A stretch of DNA of 64,000 bases, taken from the NCBI GenBank assembly GCA_963796105.1, contig CAWCKJ010000007.1, forward strand, positions 64,001 to 128,000. Reading direction: 5' to 3'. Positions 29,619-37,770 of this stretch are shown here, in pieces. The first letter of the stretch is position 1. Each line of letters begins with the position of its first letter. Origin of the DNA: a candidate division FCPU426 bacterium. Its GTDB lineage: Bacteria > Oederibacteriota > Muellerivitia > Muellerivitales > Muellerivitaceae. The notes below the pieces were generated by a model that saw only the letters and a program-made list of their open reading frames with translations, made no database searches and was not told the origin of the DNA. Both the position numbers and the translations under genes were made by a program.

Positions 29619-30635
29619 ATGAAACAAATTTGGATCACGCGCCCCATCGGCCCTGACGGCCTGGAAATAAAAGAAGCCACCCTTGCCCCCCCAGGGCCTG
29701 GACAAATGACCGTGGAGATCAAGGCCGCGGGTTTCAACTTCGCCGACTTGATGGCTTCCAAGGGTCTTTACCCGGACGCCCCCAAACTGCCCTGCGTGGT
29801 GGGTTACGAGGTGTCTGGTACCGTGGAAGCCGTGGGCGAGGGCGTGGACAGGCATTGGCTCGGTAAAGGCGTTTTCGCCTTCACCCGTTTTGGGGGGTAT
29901 TCGGAAAAAATCAATCTCCCTTTGGAACAAGTTTTCGAGAGGCCCAATAATTTAAGCCCTGATGAAGCCGCGGCCCTTCCCGTGAACTACATCACCGCCT
30001 ACCAGTTGGTGGTGGCCATGGGAGGTTTGAGGAAAGGCGAAACTATCCTGATCCATAACGCGGGAGGGGGTGTCGGCTTGGCCGCGCTCCAGTTCGCCCG
30101 CAAAATCGGGGCTGTCACTTTGGGTACCGCCAGCGCCGGCAAGCATGCTTTTTTAAAGGCCCAGGGTCTGGATGAAGCCATCGATTACCGCACAGGAGAT
30201 TGGGAAAAGGAAGTCCTGAGGATTACCGGGGGCAAGGGCGTCGAGTTGATCCTGGACCCCATCGGGGGGGCTTCCTGGAGGAAAAATTACAAGCTCCTGC
30301 GCCCATCCGGGCGCCTGGGGGTTTACGGCATTTCAAGCGCTTCCCTGTCCAAGGGCCCCAAACTACTGACATTCCTGAACCTTCTCGCCAGGATGCCTTT
30401 TTTCAATCCGGTTTCATTGATGAATAATAACCGGGGTGTTTTCGGGGCGAACCTGGGGCATCTATGGGGTGAGACTGAAAAAGTGAAGGGATGGTTCACG
30501 GAGATCCTGAAAGGCGTCCGTGATGGATGGCTCAAGCCCTACGTGGACCGGACTTTCCGTTTCTCCGAGGCGGCCGAGGCTTTCCGTTACGTGGAGCAAC
30601 GCAAGAACACGGGCAAAATCCTGCTGATTCCGTGA
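29619..30635 (+). CDS. Medium-chain NADPH:quinone oxidoreductase (VAT-1-like)
   Basis: GFNFAD, HNAGGGVG, terminal GKILL. Confidence 0.9.
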   Translation: MKQIWITRPIGPDGLEIKEATLAPPGPGQMTVEIKAAGFNFADLMASKGLYPDAPKLPCVVGYEVSGTVEAVGEGVDRHWLGKGVFAFTRFGGYSEKINLPLEQVFERPNNLSPDEAAALPVNYITAYQLVVAMGGLRKGETILIHNAGGGVGLAALQFARKIGAVTLGTASAGKHAFLKAQGLDEAIDYRTGDWEKEVLRITGGKGVELILDPIGGASWRKNYKLLRPSGRLGVYGISSASLSKGPKLLTFLNLLARMPFFNPVSLMNNNRGVFGANLGHLWGETEKVKGWFTEILKGVRDGWLKPYVDRTFRFSEAAEAFRYVEQRKNTGKILLIP

Positions 30636-30700
30636 TTGATAATCATTTCAACTGTCCACTACACATTCCCGTCATGGATAATCATCATCGGAAGAAAAGT

Positions 30701-31149: not shown

Positions 31150-31307
31150 GACAACCTCCATAAAACATTATACAAAAGGTATTGGCTTTAAACGACACCA
31201 TCATAATTTAGGACATATTAAGGGTACCTCAAAAAATTCATTGTAGAGGCTGTGGAATAAGCACATTCGTGGCTAAAACTGTGGTTTCGAAGAAACCGGT
31301 GGTTCAA

Positions 31308-31517
31308 CCGAGGGGGTTTTCGGGGCGAACCTGGGGCATCTATGGGGTGAGACTGAAAAAGTGAAGGGATGGTTCACGGAGATCCTGAAAAGGCGTCCGC
31401 GATGGCTGGCTCAAACCCCACGTGGACCGGACTCTCCGTTTCTCCGAGGCGGCCGAGGCTTTCCGTTACGTGGAGCAACGCAAGAACACGGGCAAAATCC
31501 TCCTGGTTCCGTGATTG
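31308..31517 (+). pseudogene. Duplicated 3' end (about 210 bp) of the quinone oxidoreductase gene
   Basis: High identity to 30431-30638 with scattered substitutions and a 1-bp insertion. Confidence 0.9.
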
Positions 31518-31602: not shown

Positions 31603-31839
31603 ATGAAAACAGCCATATCCATACCCCCAAAAGTTTTTGACAACGCCGAAAAGCTGGCGGAAAAGATGGGAGTTTCCCGGAGCCAGCTTTATGTCACTGC
31701 CATCAAGAATTACCTGGATGGCCATAATGACGATTCCGTGACGGCCAAGCTCAACGATGTTTATGCCCACGTGGATTCAAAACTTGATCCCGCTTTGAGG
31801 AAGATTCAGGCAAAATCCATCTCCAAGGATGGGTGGTGA
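31603..31839 (+). CDS. RHH antitoxin (ChpI/MazE-like)
   Basis: MKTAISIP...VSRSQLY; overlaps the mazF start. Confidence 0.85.
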   Translation: MKTAISIPPKVFDNAEKLAEKMGVSRSQLYVTAIKNYLDGHNDDSVTAKLNDVYAHVDSKLDPALRKIQAKSISKDGW

Positions 31840-32177
31840 ACCGGGGCGAAATTTGGTGGGCGGATTTACCCGGCCCCAAGGCCTCGGAACCCGGCTACAG
31901 CCGTCCCATTCTCATCATCCAATCAGACGCTTTTAATCGAAGCCGCATTCAAACCGTTGTCGCTGTCGCCCTGACATCCAATCTCCGATTAGCCGACGCT
32001 CCCGGAAACGTGAAACTCTCCGCGCGCAAAACGGGTCTTCCGAAGGATTCGGTGGCCAACGTGTCCCAAATCATCACACTGGATAAAACCTTCCTGCGGG
32101 ATAAATCGGGAAAATTGGATGAACTGACGGTATCCCGCGTTGAAGACGGGTTAAAACTTTTGTTGAATTTGAAATAA
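31833..32177 (+). CDS. mazF: PemK/MazF toxin
   Basis: RGEIWWADL, SEPGYSRP, QSDAFN, DSVANVSQIITLDK. Confidence 0.92.
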   Translation: MVNRGEIWWADLPGPKASEPGYSRPILIIQSDAFNRSRIQTVVAVALTSNLRLADAPGNVKLSARKTGLPKDSVANVSQIITLDKTFLRDKSGKLDELTVSRVEDGLKLLLNLK

Positions 32178-32191
32178 AACCTTGCGCCATT

Positions 32192-33211
32192 GGAAAATAA
32201 GGGTCAGGTCTTGAAAACGGCATTACGAATCTTTTCCTCAAGACCCTTTTCCTCACGAATGCGTTTCTTCATCCTTGCCACCGCATGGCTTACCGCGGAG
32301 TATTTTACCCCCATCTTCTTAGCCACTTCCCCTAAACTTAATCGGCATATCTGACGCAAGGCCCATACCGCCGCTTCCCGCCCTTCGTTTTTCCGCCGGG
32401 TCGGAACCACCATATCTTTCACCATAATCCCATGCATTTTCCCGATCTTTTTCAGCGTTTCCTCGGCATCCGGCAAGCCCAATTTCTGTTGTTCCCTGTG
32501 CGCCTCATGGTGATGCTTCCCCCTAATCTTCCCTTTAATGTGCTCCTCAAAACTTTTTCCCCCCAATATGATCTGCGATGTTACTTGCTCCCATGGGCTC
32601 TCTTTCTTCCTCAAACCTTCCAACACGAATTTCCGGTACAAACCCTGCGCCTCATGTTTCACTTTTCCAAACTGTTCCAAAAGCCATTTATTTTCCACCC
32701 ATTCCGGCTCGGTCTCATAACCTGCCGTAGCCCGGTAACTGCTCCATTTCCATTCCTTCGGATGCTTGACCATCTTGGCCCGGACCGGATTCAAGACCAC
32801 ATACCTGCATAATTCCTTTAAATAACTATCCTTATGGACCAAAATCGCCTTATAACGCCCCTGGTACAAATGTCCCGCGCGGTTGTGACGCCGGTTGAAT
32901 CGAAGGGTATAAATTCCATTTAAGTGGCGGAGGGCTTGGGAAAGATTAGCTTCGGGGGTTTCTACCAGCAAATGGTAATGGTTATCCATCAACACCCAGG
33001 CATGAACGACCACCCCGTAAGAATCAACGGTATCCGCCAACGCCCGAATAAAAAGCCACCGGTCCTTGTCATCGCGAACGATAGGTCTTCGTTCGTTCCC
33101 GCGGGAGGTGATGTGATATACAGCGCCTGGATATTGAATTCTTAAGGGACGTGCCATTTCAGTATCTTAATCCGCCCTTATGCCGTTTTCAAGACCTGAC
33201 CCTTGTGTTCT
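32192..33211 (-). mobile_element. IS-like element, copy 1: Y1/HUH transposase with about 32-bp terminal inverted repeats
   Basis: Left GGAAAATAAGGGTCAGGTCTTGAAAACGGCAT, right ATGCCGTTTTCAAGACCTGACCCTTGTGTTCT; near-identical copy at 35763-36782. Confidence 0.9.
32204..33157 (-). CDS. REP-associated-like (RAYT) Y1 tyrosine transposase with C-terminal HTH
   Basis: YHITSRGN, LMDNHYHLL (HUH), GHLYQGRY, RYVVLNPVRA (catalytic Tyr), WSSY. Confidence 0.92.
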   Translation of the reverse strand: MARPLRIQYPGAVYHITSRGNERRPIVRDDKDRWLFIRALADTVDSYGVVVHAWVLMDNHYHLLVETPEANLSQALRHLNGIYTLRFNRRHNRAGHLYQGRYKAILVHKDSYLKELCRYVVLNPVRAKMVKHPKEWKWSSYRATAGYETEPEWVENKWLLEQFGKVKHEAQGLYRKFVLEGLRKKESPWEQVTSQIILGGKSFEEHIKGKIRGKHHHEAHREQQKLGLPDAEETLKKIGKMHGIMVKDMVVPTRRKNEGREAAVWALRQICRLSLGEVAKKMGVKYSAVSHAVARMKKRIREEKGLEEKIRNAVFKT

Positions 33212-33569
33212 GCCCGTCATCATTTTCTCGGTCCTGGGGGAACAAAAGGACATCCAAAAAGGGATGGATTTAGGGGCCAACGATTACACCGTGAAGGGTT
33301 TTTATACTCCCCGGCAAATCCTCAGCAAGATCAAGGATTTGATGACGAAAGCCGGCCCCGCAAAAGGGGGCGCTTCTTTCAAGGTGAAGGTGATGGATGG
33401 CACGGAGGACGCTCCCCTTCTTTGGTCGGAATTGGGGTTTACCAGCAAGAACAAATGTCCCCAGTGCCAGGGTGAACTGGTATTGGAGCTGTTTCCGGAC
33501 TATGTCCACAATGAGGGCCATTGGTTCACGGCGCACTTCCTTTGCGGCAAGTGCAACAAAGCCTATTAA
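33212..33569 (+). pseudogene. 5'-truncated response regulator with Zn ribbon
   Basis: Similarity to 34437-35081 starts exactly at the element's right IR; phospho-acceptor half of the receiver domain absent. Confidence 0.85.
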
Positions 33570-33595
33570 ATTAACCCACCCCTACCCAAAGAATT

Positions 33596-34063
33596 TAGCC
33601 ACGGATGTGCCAATCTTCCAAAAACCTTTACGGAGATTGGTACGATACCAGCCCCAATATCATCCTAATGGAAGGCTGGCATGCATGGAATTCATGGGAT
33701 TTAAAACGCATTTTGATCATGTTCTATGGTTAAGCTGACAGCCGATGGAAAAATTAATTTTTCCACGGTCTGTAGGCTTGACCATAACGCCCATCGGGCG
33801 CAAGAGCCGTGCTCTTGTCATGATCTGAGACATTTTTGAATTATTCATTGTACATTTTTCATTTTGTTCATTTTTATTCATCCCCCTGCATGCCGAACCT
33901 CATTAAAGCCTTCAATGAAAGTTCGGTATAGTGCCGATTTCCTCAAATGCTTCAGGGTTGAATCAGCACATCCCCTGAATCCGTGCCGATCATCCATAAA
34001 GATATATTGAGATCGGTACTGTACCAGCCTTCTTCTATTGCCTTATGGCAGGCTGGCACGTGG
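33596..34063. repeat. Cluster of three twin-hairpin elements (33596-33693 +, 33887-33973 -, 33983-34063 +) plus additional hairpins
   Basis: TGCCRATC-N19-GATYGGTA-N3-TACCAGCC-N20-GGCTGGCA architecture. Confidence 0.7.
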
Positions 34064-34436
34064 CAAAGACTTGTCTTGCTTAACGCCTTTTAGAATTAAA
34101 AACATCTAATTTTGTTTATCTTTGTTAACTTGATTTATTAATCGAAAAATCATGAAACTTGTCATTCAATCCCATAAATGTGCAAAAGCCTCCTTCTCCA
34201 CTATCGTCATGACAACGTCGAATAAATTGGGAATTCCCCAGGACCCGAGGGATAATTTTCTTATCTCGGCGCGTGATTGTCTTCATCCTGCCAGGACGCC
34301 GTCAATACCAAGCAAGCTTTTCCCCGCTTTGTTTCTTTAGCACCCCATGAATTTTTTGGAACAAGCTTGCTGTTTCCCGGCAACCCATTTTCATCAAGAG
34401 ATCCCAGCCACAATCATCATTCCAGGAGGAACCATC

Positions 34437-35081
34437 ATGCAAAATGAAACTACTCAATCCCCAAACGAGGTTAAACCTTTGGCCGAGAAGGGGAAAAAAG
34501 GAACCATACTGATCATGGAGGACCAGCGCGGCTTTCGCAGGGTTTACAAGGATGTCCTGGAGGCGGATGGTTACGCGGTGATTGAGAGCACCAACGGCGA
34601 GGAAGGCTGGGATATGATCCTGGCCCATAAGCCGGACCTGGTTCTTTTGGACTTGGGGCTTCCGGTGCTGGACGGATTCCAGGTCCTCGAGAAAATCCGC
34701 CGGAGCGGGCAGACCAAGGATATTCCCGTCATTATTTTCTCGGTTCTCGGGGAACCCCGGGATGTCCAAAAAGCCCTTCAAATGGGCGCCAACGACTATA
34801 CCGTCAAGGGGTTTTATACGCCCAGGCAGATCCTGAGCAAGATCCGGGATCTCCTGCACGACCGCCAGAAAAAAGCCGTGAAAAATTCCTACCGGCTCCA
34901 TATCAAGACCGGCCAGGGCAACGAGCCCCAGCTCCAGCAGGATCTAGGGATGGAAGCCGGCCTCAAGTGCGCCCAATGCCTGGTCGTCCTGGAAGCGGAA
35001 TTTTTCCCTGATTACGCCCGCTCCGACGGCCACTGGTTCGCCGCCCGCCTGGTTTGCCCCAACTGCGGAAAACCTTTTTAG
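34437..35081 (+). CDS. Response regulator receiver with C-terminal CxxC...CxxC Zn-ribbon-like domain
   Basis: MED, PDLVLLDLGLP..DG, GANDYTVK; CAQC and CPNC; AGGAGG RBS. Confidence 0.88.
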   Translation: MQNETTQSPNEVKPLAEKGKKGTILIMEDQRGFRRVYKDVLEADGYAVIESTNGEEGWDMILAHKPDLVLLDLGLPVLDGFQVLEKIRRSGQTKDIPVIIFSVLGEPRDVQKALQMGANDYTVKGFYTPRQILSKIRDLLHDRQKKAVKNSYRLHIKTGQGNEPQLQQDLGMEAGLKCAQCLVVLEAEFFPDYARSDGHWFAARLVCPNCGKPF

Positions 35082-35230
35082 GAACAAGGATATTCGGCGG
35101 ACGCAAACAAGAAAGCGGCGTCTCATGGACAACTTGGGGACGCGGGATTCAAGCGGGGGATTTCAGGGCCTTAAGTGATTCCGTTGTTAAACAACTGGAA
35201 TAAGCGGGACAATTATTTCCCCGAAGAACT

Positions 35231-35557
35231 TTAAGCGTGGGTTAATTGTTTCGTTCGATTGCCAACACCCGTCACAATTTTGAAGCGCAAACCCATAGGC
35301 GCCAATACACGCGTTAGGTTCCGGTACATGGGGTTTCCATCCTTCGAAACAATCGCGGTAATGGCTTGGCGGGACAAATGGGCTTCGCGGGCAAGCCAAG
35401 TTTTTCCTCCCATTGCTTTAGCGCAATCATTGAGGCAGGCCAGGAGAATTCCGGGATCGCCATCCTCCAAAGCGGCGTTTAAATATCCGGCCCTTTCTTT
35501 AGGATCTTTCAGCTTTTTAAGCAAATATTCCTTGTAACTTCCCGATGTTTTATCCAT
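35231..35557 (-). CDS. Addiction-module antidote protein (HigA/COG3636-like HTH)
   Basis: YLNAALEDGD, AKAMGG, LAREAHLSRQ, GNP. Confidence 0.85.
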   Translation of the reverse strand: MDKTSGSYKEYLLKKLKDPKERAGYLNAALEDGDPGILLACLNDCAKAMGGKTWLAREAHLSRQAITAIVSKDGNPMYRNLTRVLAPMGLRFKIVTGVGNRTKQLTHA

Positions 35558-35608
35558 AACGAAACCTCCATTTATCCAATGATCAATCCTTCTTTTTCCC
35601 TTTCGCTT

Positions 35609-35762
35609 CTAGGACTTTTCTCGCCTTAAAATCCGCCCAATACTCATGGGCCTTAGCGACATCACTTTCCTGCCTTTTCTTCGTTCCCCCGTGAATAGCA
35701 AAACAACCTTTTGTTCCTCAGTTAACGCGTAATAAATCCTATAACCAGGTCCGAATTCGAAT
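35609..35762 (-). pseudogene. Truncated, frameshifted RelE/HigB-like killer toxin
   Basis: FEFGPGYRIYY...VVLL, then GGTKKRQESDVAKAHEYW in another frame; 5' part cut at the transposase element IR. Confidence 0.8.
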
Positions 35763-36782
35763 AGAACATAAGGGTCAGGTCTTGTAAACGGCATTACGAA
35801 TCTTTTCCTCAAGACCCTTTTCCTCACGAATGCGTTTCTTCATCCTTGCCACCGCATGGCTTACCGCGGAGTATTTTACCCCCATCTTCTTAGCCACTTC
35901 CCCTAAACTTAATCGGCATATCTGACGCAAGGCCCATACCGCCGCTTCCCGCCCTTCGTTTTTCTGCCGGGTCGGAACCACCATATCTTTCACCATAATC
36001 CCATGCATTTTCCCGATCTTTTTCAGCGTTTCCTCGGCATCCGGCAAGCCCAATTTCTGTTGTTCCCTGTGCGCCTCATGGTGATGCTTCCCCCTAATCT
36101 TCCCTTTAATGTGCTCCTCAAAACTTTTCCCCCCCAATATGATCTGCGATGTTACTTGCTCCCATGGGCTCTCTTTCTTCCTCAAACCTTCCAACACGAA
36201 TTTCCGGTACAAACCCCGCGCCTTATGTTTCACTTTTCCAAACTGTTCCAAAAGCCATTTATTTTCCACCCATTCCGGCTCGGTCTCATAACCTGCCGTA
36301 GCCCGGTAACTGCTCCATTTCCATTCCTTCGGATGCTTGACCATCTTGGCCCGGACCGGATTCAAGACCACATACCTGCATAATTCCTTTAAATAACTAT
36401 CCTTATGGACCAAAATCGCCTTATAACGCCCCTGGTACAAATGTCCCGCGCGGTTGTGACGCCGGTTGAATCGAAGGGTATAAATTCCATTTAAGTGGCG
36501 GAGGGCTTGGGAAAGATTAGCTTCGGGGGTTTCTACCAGCAAATGGTAATGGTTATCCATCAACACCCAGGCATGAACGACCACCCCGTAAGAATCAACG
36601 GTATCCGCCAACGCCCGAATAAAAAGCCACCGGTCCTTGTCATCGCGAACGATAGGTCTTCGTTCGTTCCCGCGGGAGGTGATGTGATATACAGCGCCTG
36701 GATATTGAATTCTTAAGGGACGTGCCATTTCAGTATCTTAATCCGCCCTTATGCCGTTTTCAAGACCTGACCCTTGTGTTCT
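35763..36782 (-). mobile_element. IS-like element, copy 2: Y1/HUH transposase with TIRs
   Basis: AGAACATAAGGGTCAGGTCTTGTAAACGGCAT ... ATGCCGTTTTCAAGACCTGACCCTTGTGTTCT; 1020 bp, same length as copy 1. Confidence 0.9.
35775..36728 (-). CDS. RAYT-like Y1 tyrosine transposase, copy 2
   Basis: Same motifs as copy 1; differs at only a few residues (HEAQG/HKARG, RRK/RQK, VFKT/VYKT). Confidence 0.92.
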   Translation of the reverse strand: MARPLRIQYPGAVYHITSRGNERRPIVRDDKDRWLFIRALADTVDSYGVVVHAWVLMDNHYHLLVETPEANLSQALRHLNGIYTLRFNRRHNRAGHLYQGRYKAILVHKDSYLKELCRYVVLNPVRAKMVKHPKEWKWSSYRATAGYETEPEWVENKWLLEQFGKVKHKARGLYRKFVLEGLRKKESPWEQVTSQIILGGKSFEEHIKGKIRGKHHHEAHREQQKLGLPDAEETLKKIGKMHGIMVKDMVVPTRQKNEGREAAVWALRQICRLSLGEVAKKMGVKYSAVSHAVARMKKRIREEKGLEEKIRNAVYKT

Positions 36783-36783
36783 T

Positions 36784-37613
36784 GTCCAGCCCCGCCATGC
36801 CGGTAGCTAAAACCCTCATGCCGGTAGGTGATCCCCGCCATGCCGGTAGGCAACCACTCCATGCCGGTAGGTGATCCCCGCCATGCCGGTAGGCAACCAC
36901 TCCATGCCGGTAGTTGAATCCCCCATGCCGGTAGTCCAGCCCCGCCATGCCGGTAGCTAAAACCCTCATGCCGGTAGGCGACCCCCACCATGCCGGTAGC
37001 TGAAACCCCCATGCCGGTAGGTGATCCCCGCCATGCCGGTAGGCAACCACTCCATGCCGGTAGTTGAATCCCCCATGCCGGTAGTCCAGCCCCGCCATGC
37101 CGGTAGCTAAAACCCTCATGCCGGTAGGCGACCCCCACCATGCCGGTAGCTGAAACCCCCTGCCGGTAGTCCAGCCCCGCCATGCCGGTAGCTAAAACCC
37201 TCATGCCGGTAGTCCAGCCCCGCCATGCCGGTAGCTAAAACCCTCATGCCGGTAGTCCAGCCCCGCCATGCCGGTAGCTAAAACCCTCATGCCGGTAGGT
37301 GACCCCCACCATGCCGGTAGCTAAAACCCTCATGCCGGTAGTTGAAAGCCCCATTCCGGTAGGCGACCCCGTCCATGCCGGTAGCTGAAACCCCCATGCC
37401 GGTAGGTGATCCCCGCCATGCCGGTAGCTAAAACCCTCATGCCGGTAGGTGACCCCCGCCATGCCGGTAGTTGAAAGCCCCATTCCGGTAGGCGACCCCG
37501 GCCATGCCGGTAGCAGAAACCCTCATGCCGGTAGGCAACCTCCGCCATGCCGGTAGTTGAAAGCCTCATGCCGGTAGGCGATCCCCGCCATGCCGGTAGT
37601 CGAGACCCCGTCC
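36784..37613. repeat. Interspaced tandem array: about 38 x CATGCCGGTAG with 10-11-nt spacers (period 21-22 bp)
   Basis: Parsed by eye; recurring spacers such as TCCAGCCCCGC, CTAAAACCCT, GTGATCCCCGC, GCAACCACTC, TTGAATCCCC, CTGAAACCCC. Confidence 0.97.
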
Positions 37614-37770
37614 AATGTCGCCGGAAAACTGGCTCTCGAAAGAAGTAAGGGATTAGAGGCATTTTAAACATTGGATTTATTAGGCAACTACAAAAAAATG
37701 TCTTTTGGAGGGAAAAAGTTTGCCTGGGAATCATTTCGAATGGGAAAAGGGCCGGATTCAGGCCTATTTC

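Follow-up and report, generated by a model that had tools for sequence, protein, structure and literature searches.

How does an element that pairs a single-strand tyrosine transposase with matched inverted repeats reach new sites, and what does it do to the DNA that it joins? This question is raised by a 64,000-nucleotide stretch of the genome of a candidate division FCPU426 bacterium (GTDB lineage Bacteria; Oederibacteriota; Muellerivitia; Muellerivitales; Muellerivitaceae; assembly GCA_963796105.1, contig CAWCKJ010000007.1, positions 64,001 to 128,000 of the forward strand; hereafter, the window). The window carries two nearly identical TIRtrons, i.e., units in which a RAYT-like transposase gene (TIRYT) lies between terminal inverted repeats (TIRs), and these enclose a second copy of DNA from elsewhere in the same genome, a duplication that the initial annotation had missed. 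On balance, we lean toward a reading in which the TIRtron has spread, with its relatives, over many unrelated sites, and in which its two ends likely join target DNA independently, cutting genes and losing or carrying along neighbouring DNA.

The two TIRtron copies and their ends

The copies, A1 and A2, stand in direct orientation, 3571 bp apart, with a 954-bp gene on the minus strand of each:

32193..33210 (-), TIRtron copy A1, 1018 bp
32193..32223 (-), A1 right (3') inverted repeat, 31 bp, with the stop codon inside
32204..33157 (-), TIRYT gene of A1, 317 aa; HUH motif H60-Y61-H62, Y119 at the catalytic position (in YVVLNP), SS139-140, and a predicted C-terminal DnaA-IV-like helix-turn-helix at about residues 230-310
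33180..33210 (-), A1 left (5') inverted repeat, overlapping a -35-like hexamer at 33192
35764..36781 (-), TIRtron copy A2, 1018 bp
35764..35794 (-), A2 right (3') inverted repeat
35775..36728 (-), TIRYT gene of A2, 317 aa, its product 98.7% identical to that of A1
36751..36781 (-), A2 left (5') inverted repeat

Within the element, the copies differ at six positions (32196, 32214, 32394, 32558, 32646, and 32653), and each is 1018 bp long rather than 1020 bp as first described. The repeats that bound them are symmetrical, as annotated, and measure 31 bp (29 of 31 positions matched) instead of about 32 bp. The outer boundary of the unit lies 8 nt outside a conserved CTGACCC core. The GTTCT that had been taken for the end runs one base too far: its last T is the first base of the target, since the match to the donor locus described below begins at that T at both inner junctions. 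A stop codon does fall inside a repeat, namely the one at the 3' end of the gene, where in A1 the TGA (32204-32206) is part of the CTGACCC core. The stop is placed likewise in 29 of 53 two-ended relatives, which were chosen from 112 full-length genes on the inner 25 nt of their repeats. A promoter scan stayed at chance level (2 found, 1.3 expected).

The reported lack of a target-site duplication extends well beyond the window. No duplication longer than 2 bp was found at any of the 13 two-ended copies of this genome, and none of at least 4 bp at any of the 53 two-ended relatives; the flanks of A1 share a TG 2-mer, but one of them comes from elsewhere. Single plain ends of the window's family (A) and of a related family (B) form no significant hairpin on any of the eight end strands (z -1.7 to +2.2), and both repeats of one strand can pair with each other as a panhandle (-30.4 kcal/mol). 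Some family-B repeats (e.g., C3:665929 and C2:367336; contigs of the assembly are given as C plus a number) contain 25 inserted nucleotides that fold into a 10-bp hairpin (z -7.3), and a second hairpin variant of this family has another sequence and a similar stem.

A tyrosine transposase that moves with its repeats

The 317-aa protein matches Pfam Y1_Tnp at residues 13-120 and passes the NCBIfam REP_Tyr_transpos model (93.9 bits, cut-off 80) while failing the IS200 model (19.7 bits, cut-off 55). It holds the motifs NHYH, YQ (FQ in the alignment consensus), YVVLNP, and SS, and residues H60, H62, Y119, N123, and P124 are invariant across all 84 aligned relatives. An AlphaFold model (mean pLDDT 92) finds its best fold match in E. 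coli TnpA-REP (4er8), followed by the IS608 and ISDra2 enzymes; the original call of a RAYT-like HUH/Y1 enzyme is thus borne out. Residues 235-294 give a weak Pfam Bac_DnaA_C match (E 9e-4, below cut-off). In the model, the C-terminal domain adopts the DnaA domain IV fold (3pvp, TM-score 0.77 on the target, root-mean-square deviation 1.9; also 1j1v; range of deviations 1.9-2.2), which supports the predicted presence of the extra C-terminal helix-turn-helix that had been noticed.

The element is indeed multicopy, since the host genome (G000) holds 21 protein matches to the transposase and, by pattern search, 45 A- or B-type ends, solitary and hairpin-bearing ends included. Family A comprises two full copies, both in the window, as well as fragments and three 764-bp hybrids with a family-B end. 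Family B, about 52% identical to A in protein, has seven full copies that are 1.7% diverged among themselves, and three singletons complete the transposase matches. Each full copy and each hybrid has its own pair of flanks, and therefore the unit moved as a whole. The hybrids (C4:1266476, C4:1325134, and C6:194872) join a family-B end to the 3' 695 bp of family A and lack the HUH motif; since they occupy separate sites, they likely moved in trans. That the protein is an HUH/Y1 tyrosine transposase and that the element is mobile as a unit can be held with high confidence. Among the seven family-B copies, the outermost 8 nt differ at 0.17-0.19 of sites as compared with 0.017 in the body, and the variable codons include 21 synonymous and 16 non-synonymous changes.

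Transposase matches occur in 27 of the 41 genomes searched, host genome included, and in several other phyla. In one complete chromosome of Ca. Uabimicrobium, ten loci encode relatives of 155-252 aa, with no paired repeat detectable at any of them. Among 50,697 phages there was one weak match, and in metagenome contigs the B-type repeat pattern had no match, and the 76 loci that the protein scan returned all had an identity of 70% or less.

Target junctions and mismatched flanks

Three measures place the boundary of the element. Conservation across the 45 ends falls off beyond 8 nt outside CTGACCC, and in the 53 two-ended relatives the identity between left and right ends is above background to 8 nt and not beyond. 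At 13 of the 45 ends, the flank begins a twin (at least 94% identical) elsewhere, starting at +7 (1 end), +9 (6), +10 (2), +11 (2), +12 (1), or +14 (1), and never before +7; the control gave 7 of 2000 random points. The base at +9 is a pyrimidine at 37 of 45 ends (background 0.49, P = 8e-6), and in traced targets the base before it is not fixed as C. The same boundary, with the other half of the target missing, was seen at one junction in genome G016 and one in Pseudomonas aeruginosa.

The two flanks of a copy do not belong together. At 10 of the 13 two-ended copies (A1, A2, A4, A5, B0, B1, B4, B5, B7, and B8), a flank is a cut gene, an insertion sequence (IS), or an array whose continuation is absent on the opposite side; the call for A4 was made by eye on an NHL-like frame and that for B7 on a 90% twin. 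The test was uninformative for A3, B2, and E, and none of the 13 was collinear; families C and D (C12:330305 and C2:98747) lay outside this 13-element test. In the window, a response-regulator gene is cut at A1 and a toxin-like gene at A2; the other A1 end lacks the 5' part missing from the former, and the other A2 end the 5' half missing from the latter. For 14 of the 15 known targets, not one of the 45 ends carries the other half; the single exception involves two ends that lie in one repeat-array family. By comparison, all 19 copies of one DDE family of the same genome and all 30 copies of another retain their target duplications. The annotated description of the element as acting as an IS holds only with a qualification, since no clean insertion was seen. 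Genes cut in the host genome encode a response regulator, HTH_3, pro-kumamolisin, RHS, and IS proteins and include the element itself; targeting specific to toxins was accordingly rejected. With cut genes of so many kinds, capture does not seem to be specific, and selection would be the source of any bias.

Duplicated cargo between A1 and A2

The intervening DNA abuts both inner ends exactly and has the following features:

33211..35763, cargo, 2553 bp, a copy of C6:198338-200895 (97.9% identity; the 53 differences are patchy)
33211..33569 (+), response-regulator gene truncated within the receiver domain, 3' part only; the intact 197-aa gene is on C6
34437..35081 (+), intact response-regulator gene
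35231..35557 (-), antidote gene of an addiction module (HI1420 type), intact
35570..35763 (-), partner gene upstream of the antidote gene, truncated by the A2 end so that only its 3' half is present; no Pfam match

At both inner junctions, the C6 match begins exactly at +9, without microhomology. The donor locus on C6 is intact: the 197-aa response-regulator gene and the gene upstream of the antidote gene continue across the points at which the element ends sit in the window. The order of genes at the donor locus is the same in relatives, and since these hold the cut genes whole, this order is ancestral. The gene cut at 35570..35763, which we take to be HigB/RelE-like from its resemblance, is whole as a 122-aa gene in relative genome G001.

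Footprints of end activity

Ends in other genomes bear traces of activity. Of 208 ends, 34 repeat their own tip in tandem, the repeat mostly starting 6-9 nt outside GGGG, and a break directly behind GGGGTCA could account for 20 of these 34. A first pass had given 26 of 128 ends, against 28 of 1649 control motif sites, of which 26 belong to one unrelated repeat and one is a true end. Longer end duplications of 84-173 bp are also present. In relative genome G001 (C24, 6678-10738 of the locus), a TIRtron forms the spacer of a 1553-bp, 99.8% identical inverted duplication of its flank, which could reflect either end-primed copying or an assembly fold-back.

Neighbouring copies no more than 10 kb apart share the same orientation in 19 of 19 pairs from seven genomes, a count that leaves out two pairs, each of which is a single broken gene. 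Co-orientation drops to 8 of 12 for pairs beyond 10 kb and stands at 5 of 9 for DDE neighbours.

Proposed mechanism and alternative explanations

In the mechanism that we propose, the enzyme would bind the repeat through its helix-turn-helix together with the core, the helix-turn-helix reading the element-specific inner repeat. Tyr119 would nick one or the other strand at the outer boundary, and each end would be exchanged on its own with a strand of the target, the step there being N|pyrimidine; a second favoured break may lie just inside GGGGTCA. At the window locus, the two ends of one element would have joined the donor locus at points 2558 bp apart, after which the product, element plus cargo, would have gone in beside a resident copy or recombined into it, leaving the series element-cargo-element with both elements in direct orientation.

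Several observations weigh against independent end joining or limit its reach. The cargo is 2.1% diverged from its donor, in patches, while A1 and A2 differ by 0.6%, which a single recent copying event within the genome fails to explain; since the cargo is the more, and the more patchily, diverged, these values hint that it came from a related strain or was converted later. Seven of the 13 traceable junctions lie off +9, one with a 2-nt microhomology and six with 1-5 extra bases. Mobility is not uniform: only 53 of the 112 full-length genes passed the paired-repeat test, in three Skermanella species the gene has stayed at one syntenic locus, and matches turned up in only 23 of 72,556 plasmid records. 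Nor do neighbour pairs, or ends from one genome, count as independent samples. The DDE families are 0.04% diverged as compared with 0.6-1.7% for the TIRtron copies, i.e., about 15-40 times younger, and therefore make an imperfect control, since the older TIRtron copies had more time for later rearrangement; the recent activity proposed for the element holds only in this relative sense. Finally, collecting all genomic copies and empty alleles, a check that had been suggested at the outset, yielded the ends and the pyrimidine bias but no pair of filled and empty sites among metagenome contigs, phages, and plasmid comparisons (those of Skermanella and Paraburkholderia plasmids gave only syntenic inheritance or unrelated indels), so that the primary insertion product was never seen.

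The age of the copies also favours the principal rival, which we consider possible though rather unlikely: a clean, IS200/IS605-like insertion through a single-stranded circle, with the flanks later deleted or rearranged by resident ends that were still active. It would account for the fact that both ends clearly travel together (in the seven B copies and three hybrids) and for the panhandle pairing of the two repeats, and three of the 13 copies were uninformative. However, none of the ten informative copies has matching flanks, and deletion alone could not produce a duplication with joins at both ends, such as the cargo in the window. A different source of shuffled flanks would be the host, through homologous recombination or segmental duplication between resident copies, with the enzyme having made only the original copies or being a passenger now. 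The direct orientation of neighbours and the patchy divergence of the cargo fit such events, and one of them may well have been the last step in forming A1-cargo-A2. Yet recombination conserves both halves of a target at some end, and the absence of the other half for nearly all known targets argues against a simple exchange of flanks; nor can it create junctions fixed at +8, a pyrimidine bias, or tip re-iterations, and all 49 DDE copies in the same genome are unshuffled. We therefore judge this explanation improbable, and as a sole cause recombination is largely refuted.

That segmental duplication or mis-assembly might underlie the pair of copies had been anticipated in the initial annotation, and the cargo did turn out to be duplicated. 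An artefact of assembly or strain mixing, as the source of the second copy and the cargo duplicate, would suit a genome that looks like a metagenome assembly (16 contigs), and no public contig, among those of four low-coverage DNA runs, bridges the window junctions; among public RNA runs, none was listed as containing this genome. It nonetheless appears very improbable, since A1 and A2 differ at six sites, their outer flanks differ, and contamination is 0.32%. In addition, run X1 contains a stretch that shows 0 differences from the window cargo (34549-34775) and another with the six differences expected of the C6 version (34151-34279), and two other junctions are reproduced in short-read contigs; since a relation of runs X1 and X2 to the source sample is possible, their support is not fully independent.

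Relation to known transposases

The architecture itself is already known: the element is a TIRtron/TIRYT, equivalent to TnpA-Y1 subclass 2.1.2 and to RAYT group 1. RAYT-like genes of this type were named TIRYT, and their units TIRtrons with a GGGGWSAS motif, by Di Nocera, De Gregorio and Rocco (2013; PMC3733652). Quentin et al. (2018; PMC6006769) placed TIRYT in TnpA-Y1 subclass 2.1 and noted the DnaA-like domain, and Bertels et al. (2017; PMC5581495) found RAYT group 1, with 6.2% duplicates and 1.2% on plasmids, to be the most IS-like of the RAYT groups and the most duplicated of the true ones. In the open-access literature, 'TIRYT' was found only in the publications of 2013 and 2018, in a search that did not extend to subscription journals, ISfinder, or TnCentral.

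As in the 2013 description, so far as it was available, the window elements have a RAYT-like tyrosine transposase gene inside long inverted repeats, one of which overlaps the 3' end of the gene; the GGGGWSAS motif is matched at 7 of 8 positions in family A (AGGGTCAG) and 8 of 8 in family B (GGGGTCAG); and solitary and self-complementary repeats occur elsewhere in the genome. What goes beyond the available text of that paper are ends defined to the base pair, a target rule, near-identical dispersed copies, and cargo capture, each shown or inferred here. With subclass 2.1.2 and RAYT group 1, in the published material available, the element shares NHYH, YxxxNP, the SS extension, a Bac_DnaA_C-like C-terminal domain, and a lack of REP sequences. 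The printed consensus of the subclass (NH[YF]H, FQ, Y[IV]HLNP, SS) is matched, with YVVLNP departing from it at one position.

The element resembles IS200/IS605 members (IS608, ISDra2) in its catalytic fold and its lack of target duplication, but differs from them in having matched inverted repeats without significant subterminal hairpins, YxxxNP in place of YxxxQ, and only a one-base pyrimidine bias instead of clean insertion 3' of a conserved tetra- or pentanucleotide. Its closest solved structure (4er8) links it to REPtrons and canonical RAYTs. Related enzymes (TnpA-REP) cut single strands at C|T, with the 3'-OH rejoined to the tyrosine-linked 5' end, according to the available text of Corneloup et al. 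(2021; PMC8266576). That rule would be in line with a cut 5' of a pyrimidine; unlike REPtrons, however, the ends lack GTAG-footed hairpin REPs, and the gene itself is multiplied (the 21 matches above).

One-ended transposition that carries adjacent DNA is familiar from the IS91/ISCR elements, whose HUH enzymes are of the Y2 type and act on asymmetric ori and ter ends with a tetranucleotide target. The TIRtron is like these in its HUH enzyme and in the adjacent DNA that it probably carries, and unlike them in its Y1 enzyme and symmetric ends. Two further classes were rejected: a DDE insertion sequence with TIRs, on account of the HUH fold and the lack of duplication, and an integron-like cassette system, since joins fall in mid-gene in many types of gene, including the element itself.

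Neighbouring features and other repeats

The outer neighbours of the two copies are as follows:

31603..32177 (+), small upstream open reading frame (ORF) and MazF/PemK toxin gene, ending 15 bp from A1
36782..37641, tandem array of 21/22/43-bp units, entered in mid-unit by the left end of A2

Tandem arrays start within 30 nt of 4 of the 45 TIR ends (the array at 36782-37641 and three others), as opposed to 0 of 98 DDE ends (P = 0.009), and arrays of these end-adjoining families occur away from ends as well. A solitary B-type end at C2:367137 directly adjoins the first repeat of a CRISPR array. Toxin-antitoxin pairs (doc/phd, mazEF, hipBA) adjoin the transposase on several plasmids, and one does so in the window (31603-32177); with these individual cases, an enrichment for toxin-antitoxin or RHS genes near the element is at most a possibility. 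Rhodospirillum rubrum plasmid NC_007641.1 (1929-4724) has four palindromic GGGGTC-W-GACCCC sites around a DUF6447 gene, a doc/phd pair, and the transposase.

Elsewhere in the window, a 212-bp, 95% identical duplicate of the 3' end of an oxidoreductase gene (30429-30638 and 31306-31517) surrounds a HicA gene with a small partner ORF, and there are two small families of dispersed, partly palindromic repeats (2753, 7912, and 25811; 56348, 57565, 62127, and 62782).

A parallel in P. aeruginosa and its possible meaning

A comparable arrangement occurs in one 24-kb P. aeruginosa record (NZ_CP116719.1), where three full TIRtrons encoding 230-aa proteins and several mini-elements of ~190 bp, all co-oriented, lie in an orphan array of contact-dependent growth inhibition (CDI) genes. 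Six right ends are followed by start-less frames of 31-128 aa, each ahead of a small gene that is a putative immunity gene, and three of the six frames are Pfam toxin domains (Deam_C, EndoU, and Endonuclea_NS_2) that begin in mid-profile. A left end is also the exact starting point of a 2214-bp duplicate of element plus cargo. The layout in the window is the same, i.e., an end, a cut toxin-like gene, and an intact antidote gene.

A 2026 preprint reports that orphan immunity genes protect P. aeruginosa, and the parts of its main text available do not contain 'transpos', 'mobile', or 'recombination'; similarly, 'transposase' does not occur in the available part of Mercy et al. (2016). No paper tying TIRtrons to orphan arrays was found in the open-access literature, within the same limits as above.

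We put forward, tentatively and with more doubt than conviction, that TIRtrons are an uncatalogued class working as a random-break DNA collector: their ends might splice into foreign or distant DNA and copies pile up head-to-tail with cargo, selection keeping the intact antitoxin or immunity gene behind a cut toxin, which could make them the missing engine of orphan toxin-immunity arrays such as those of P. aeruginosa CDI. If true, this link, drawn from one record, would bear on how bacteria collect immunity genes.

What is new here is the behaviour of a known but uncharacterised type, with defined ends and cargo capture, and not its architecture. The locus supplies what an assay needs: the ends are exact, the target bias is of one base, there is a second break site, the tyrosine of catalysis is located, and non-autonomous hybrids occur in nature. 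Should the two ends indeed join their targets independently, this Y1 enzyme, with its symmetric ends, would shuffle genes in a way that neither IS200/IS605 nor REPtrons do.

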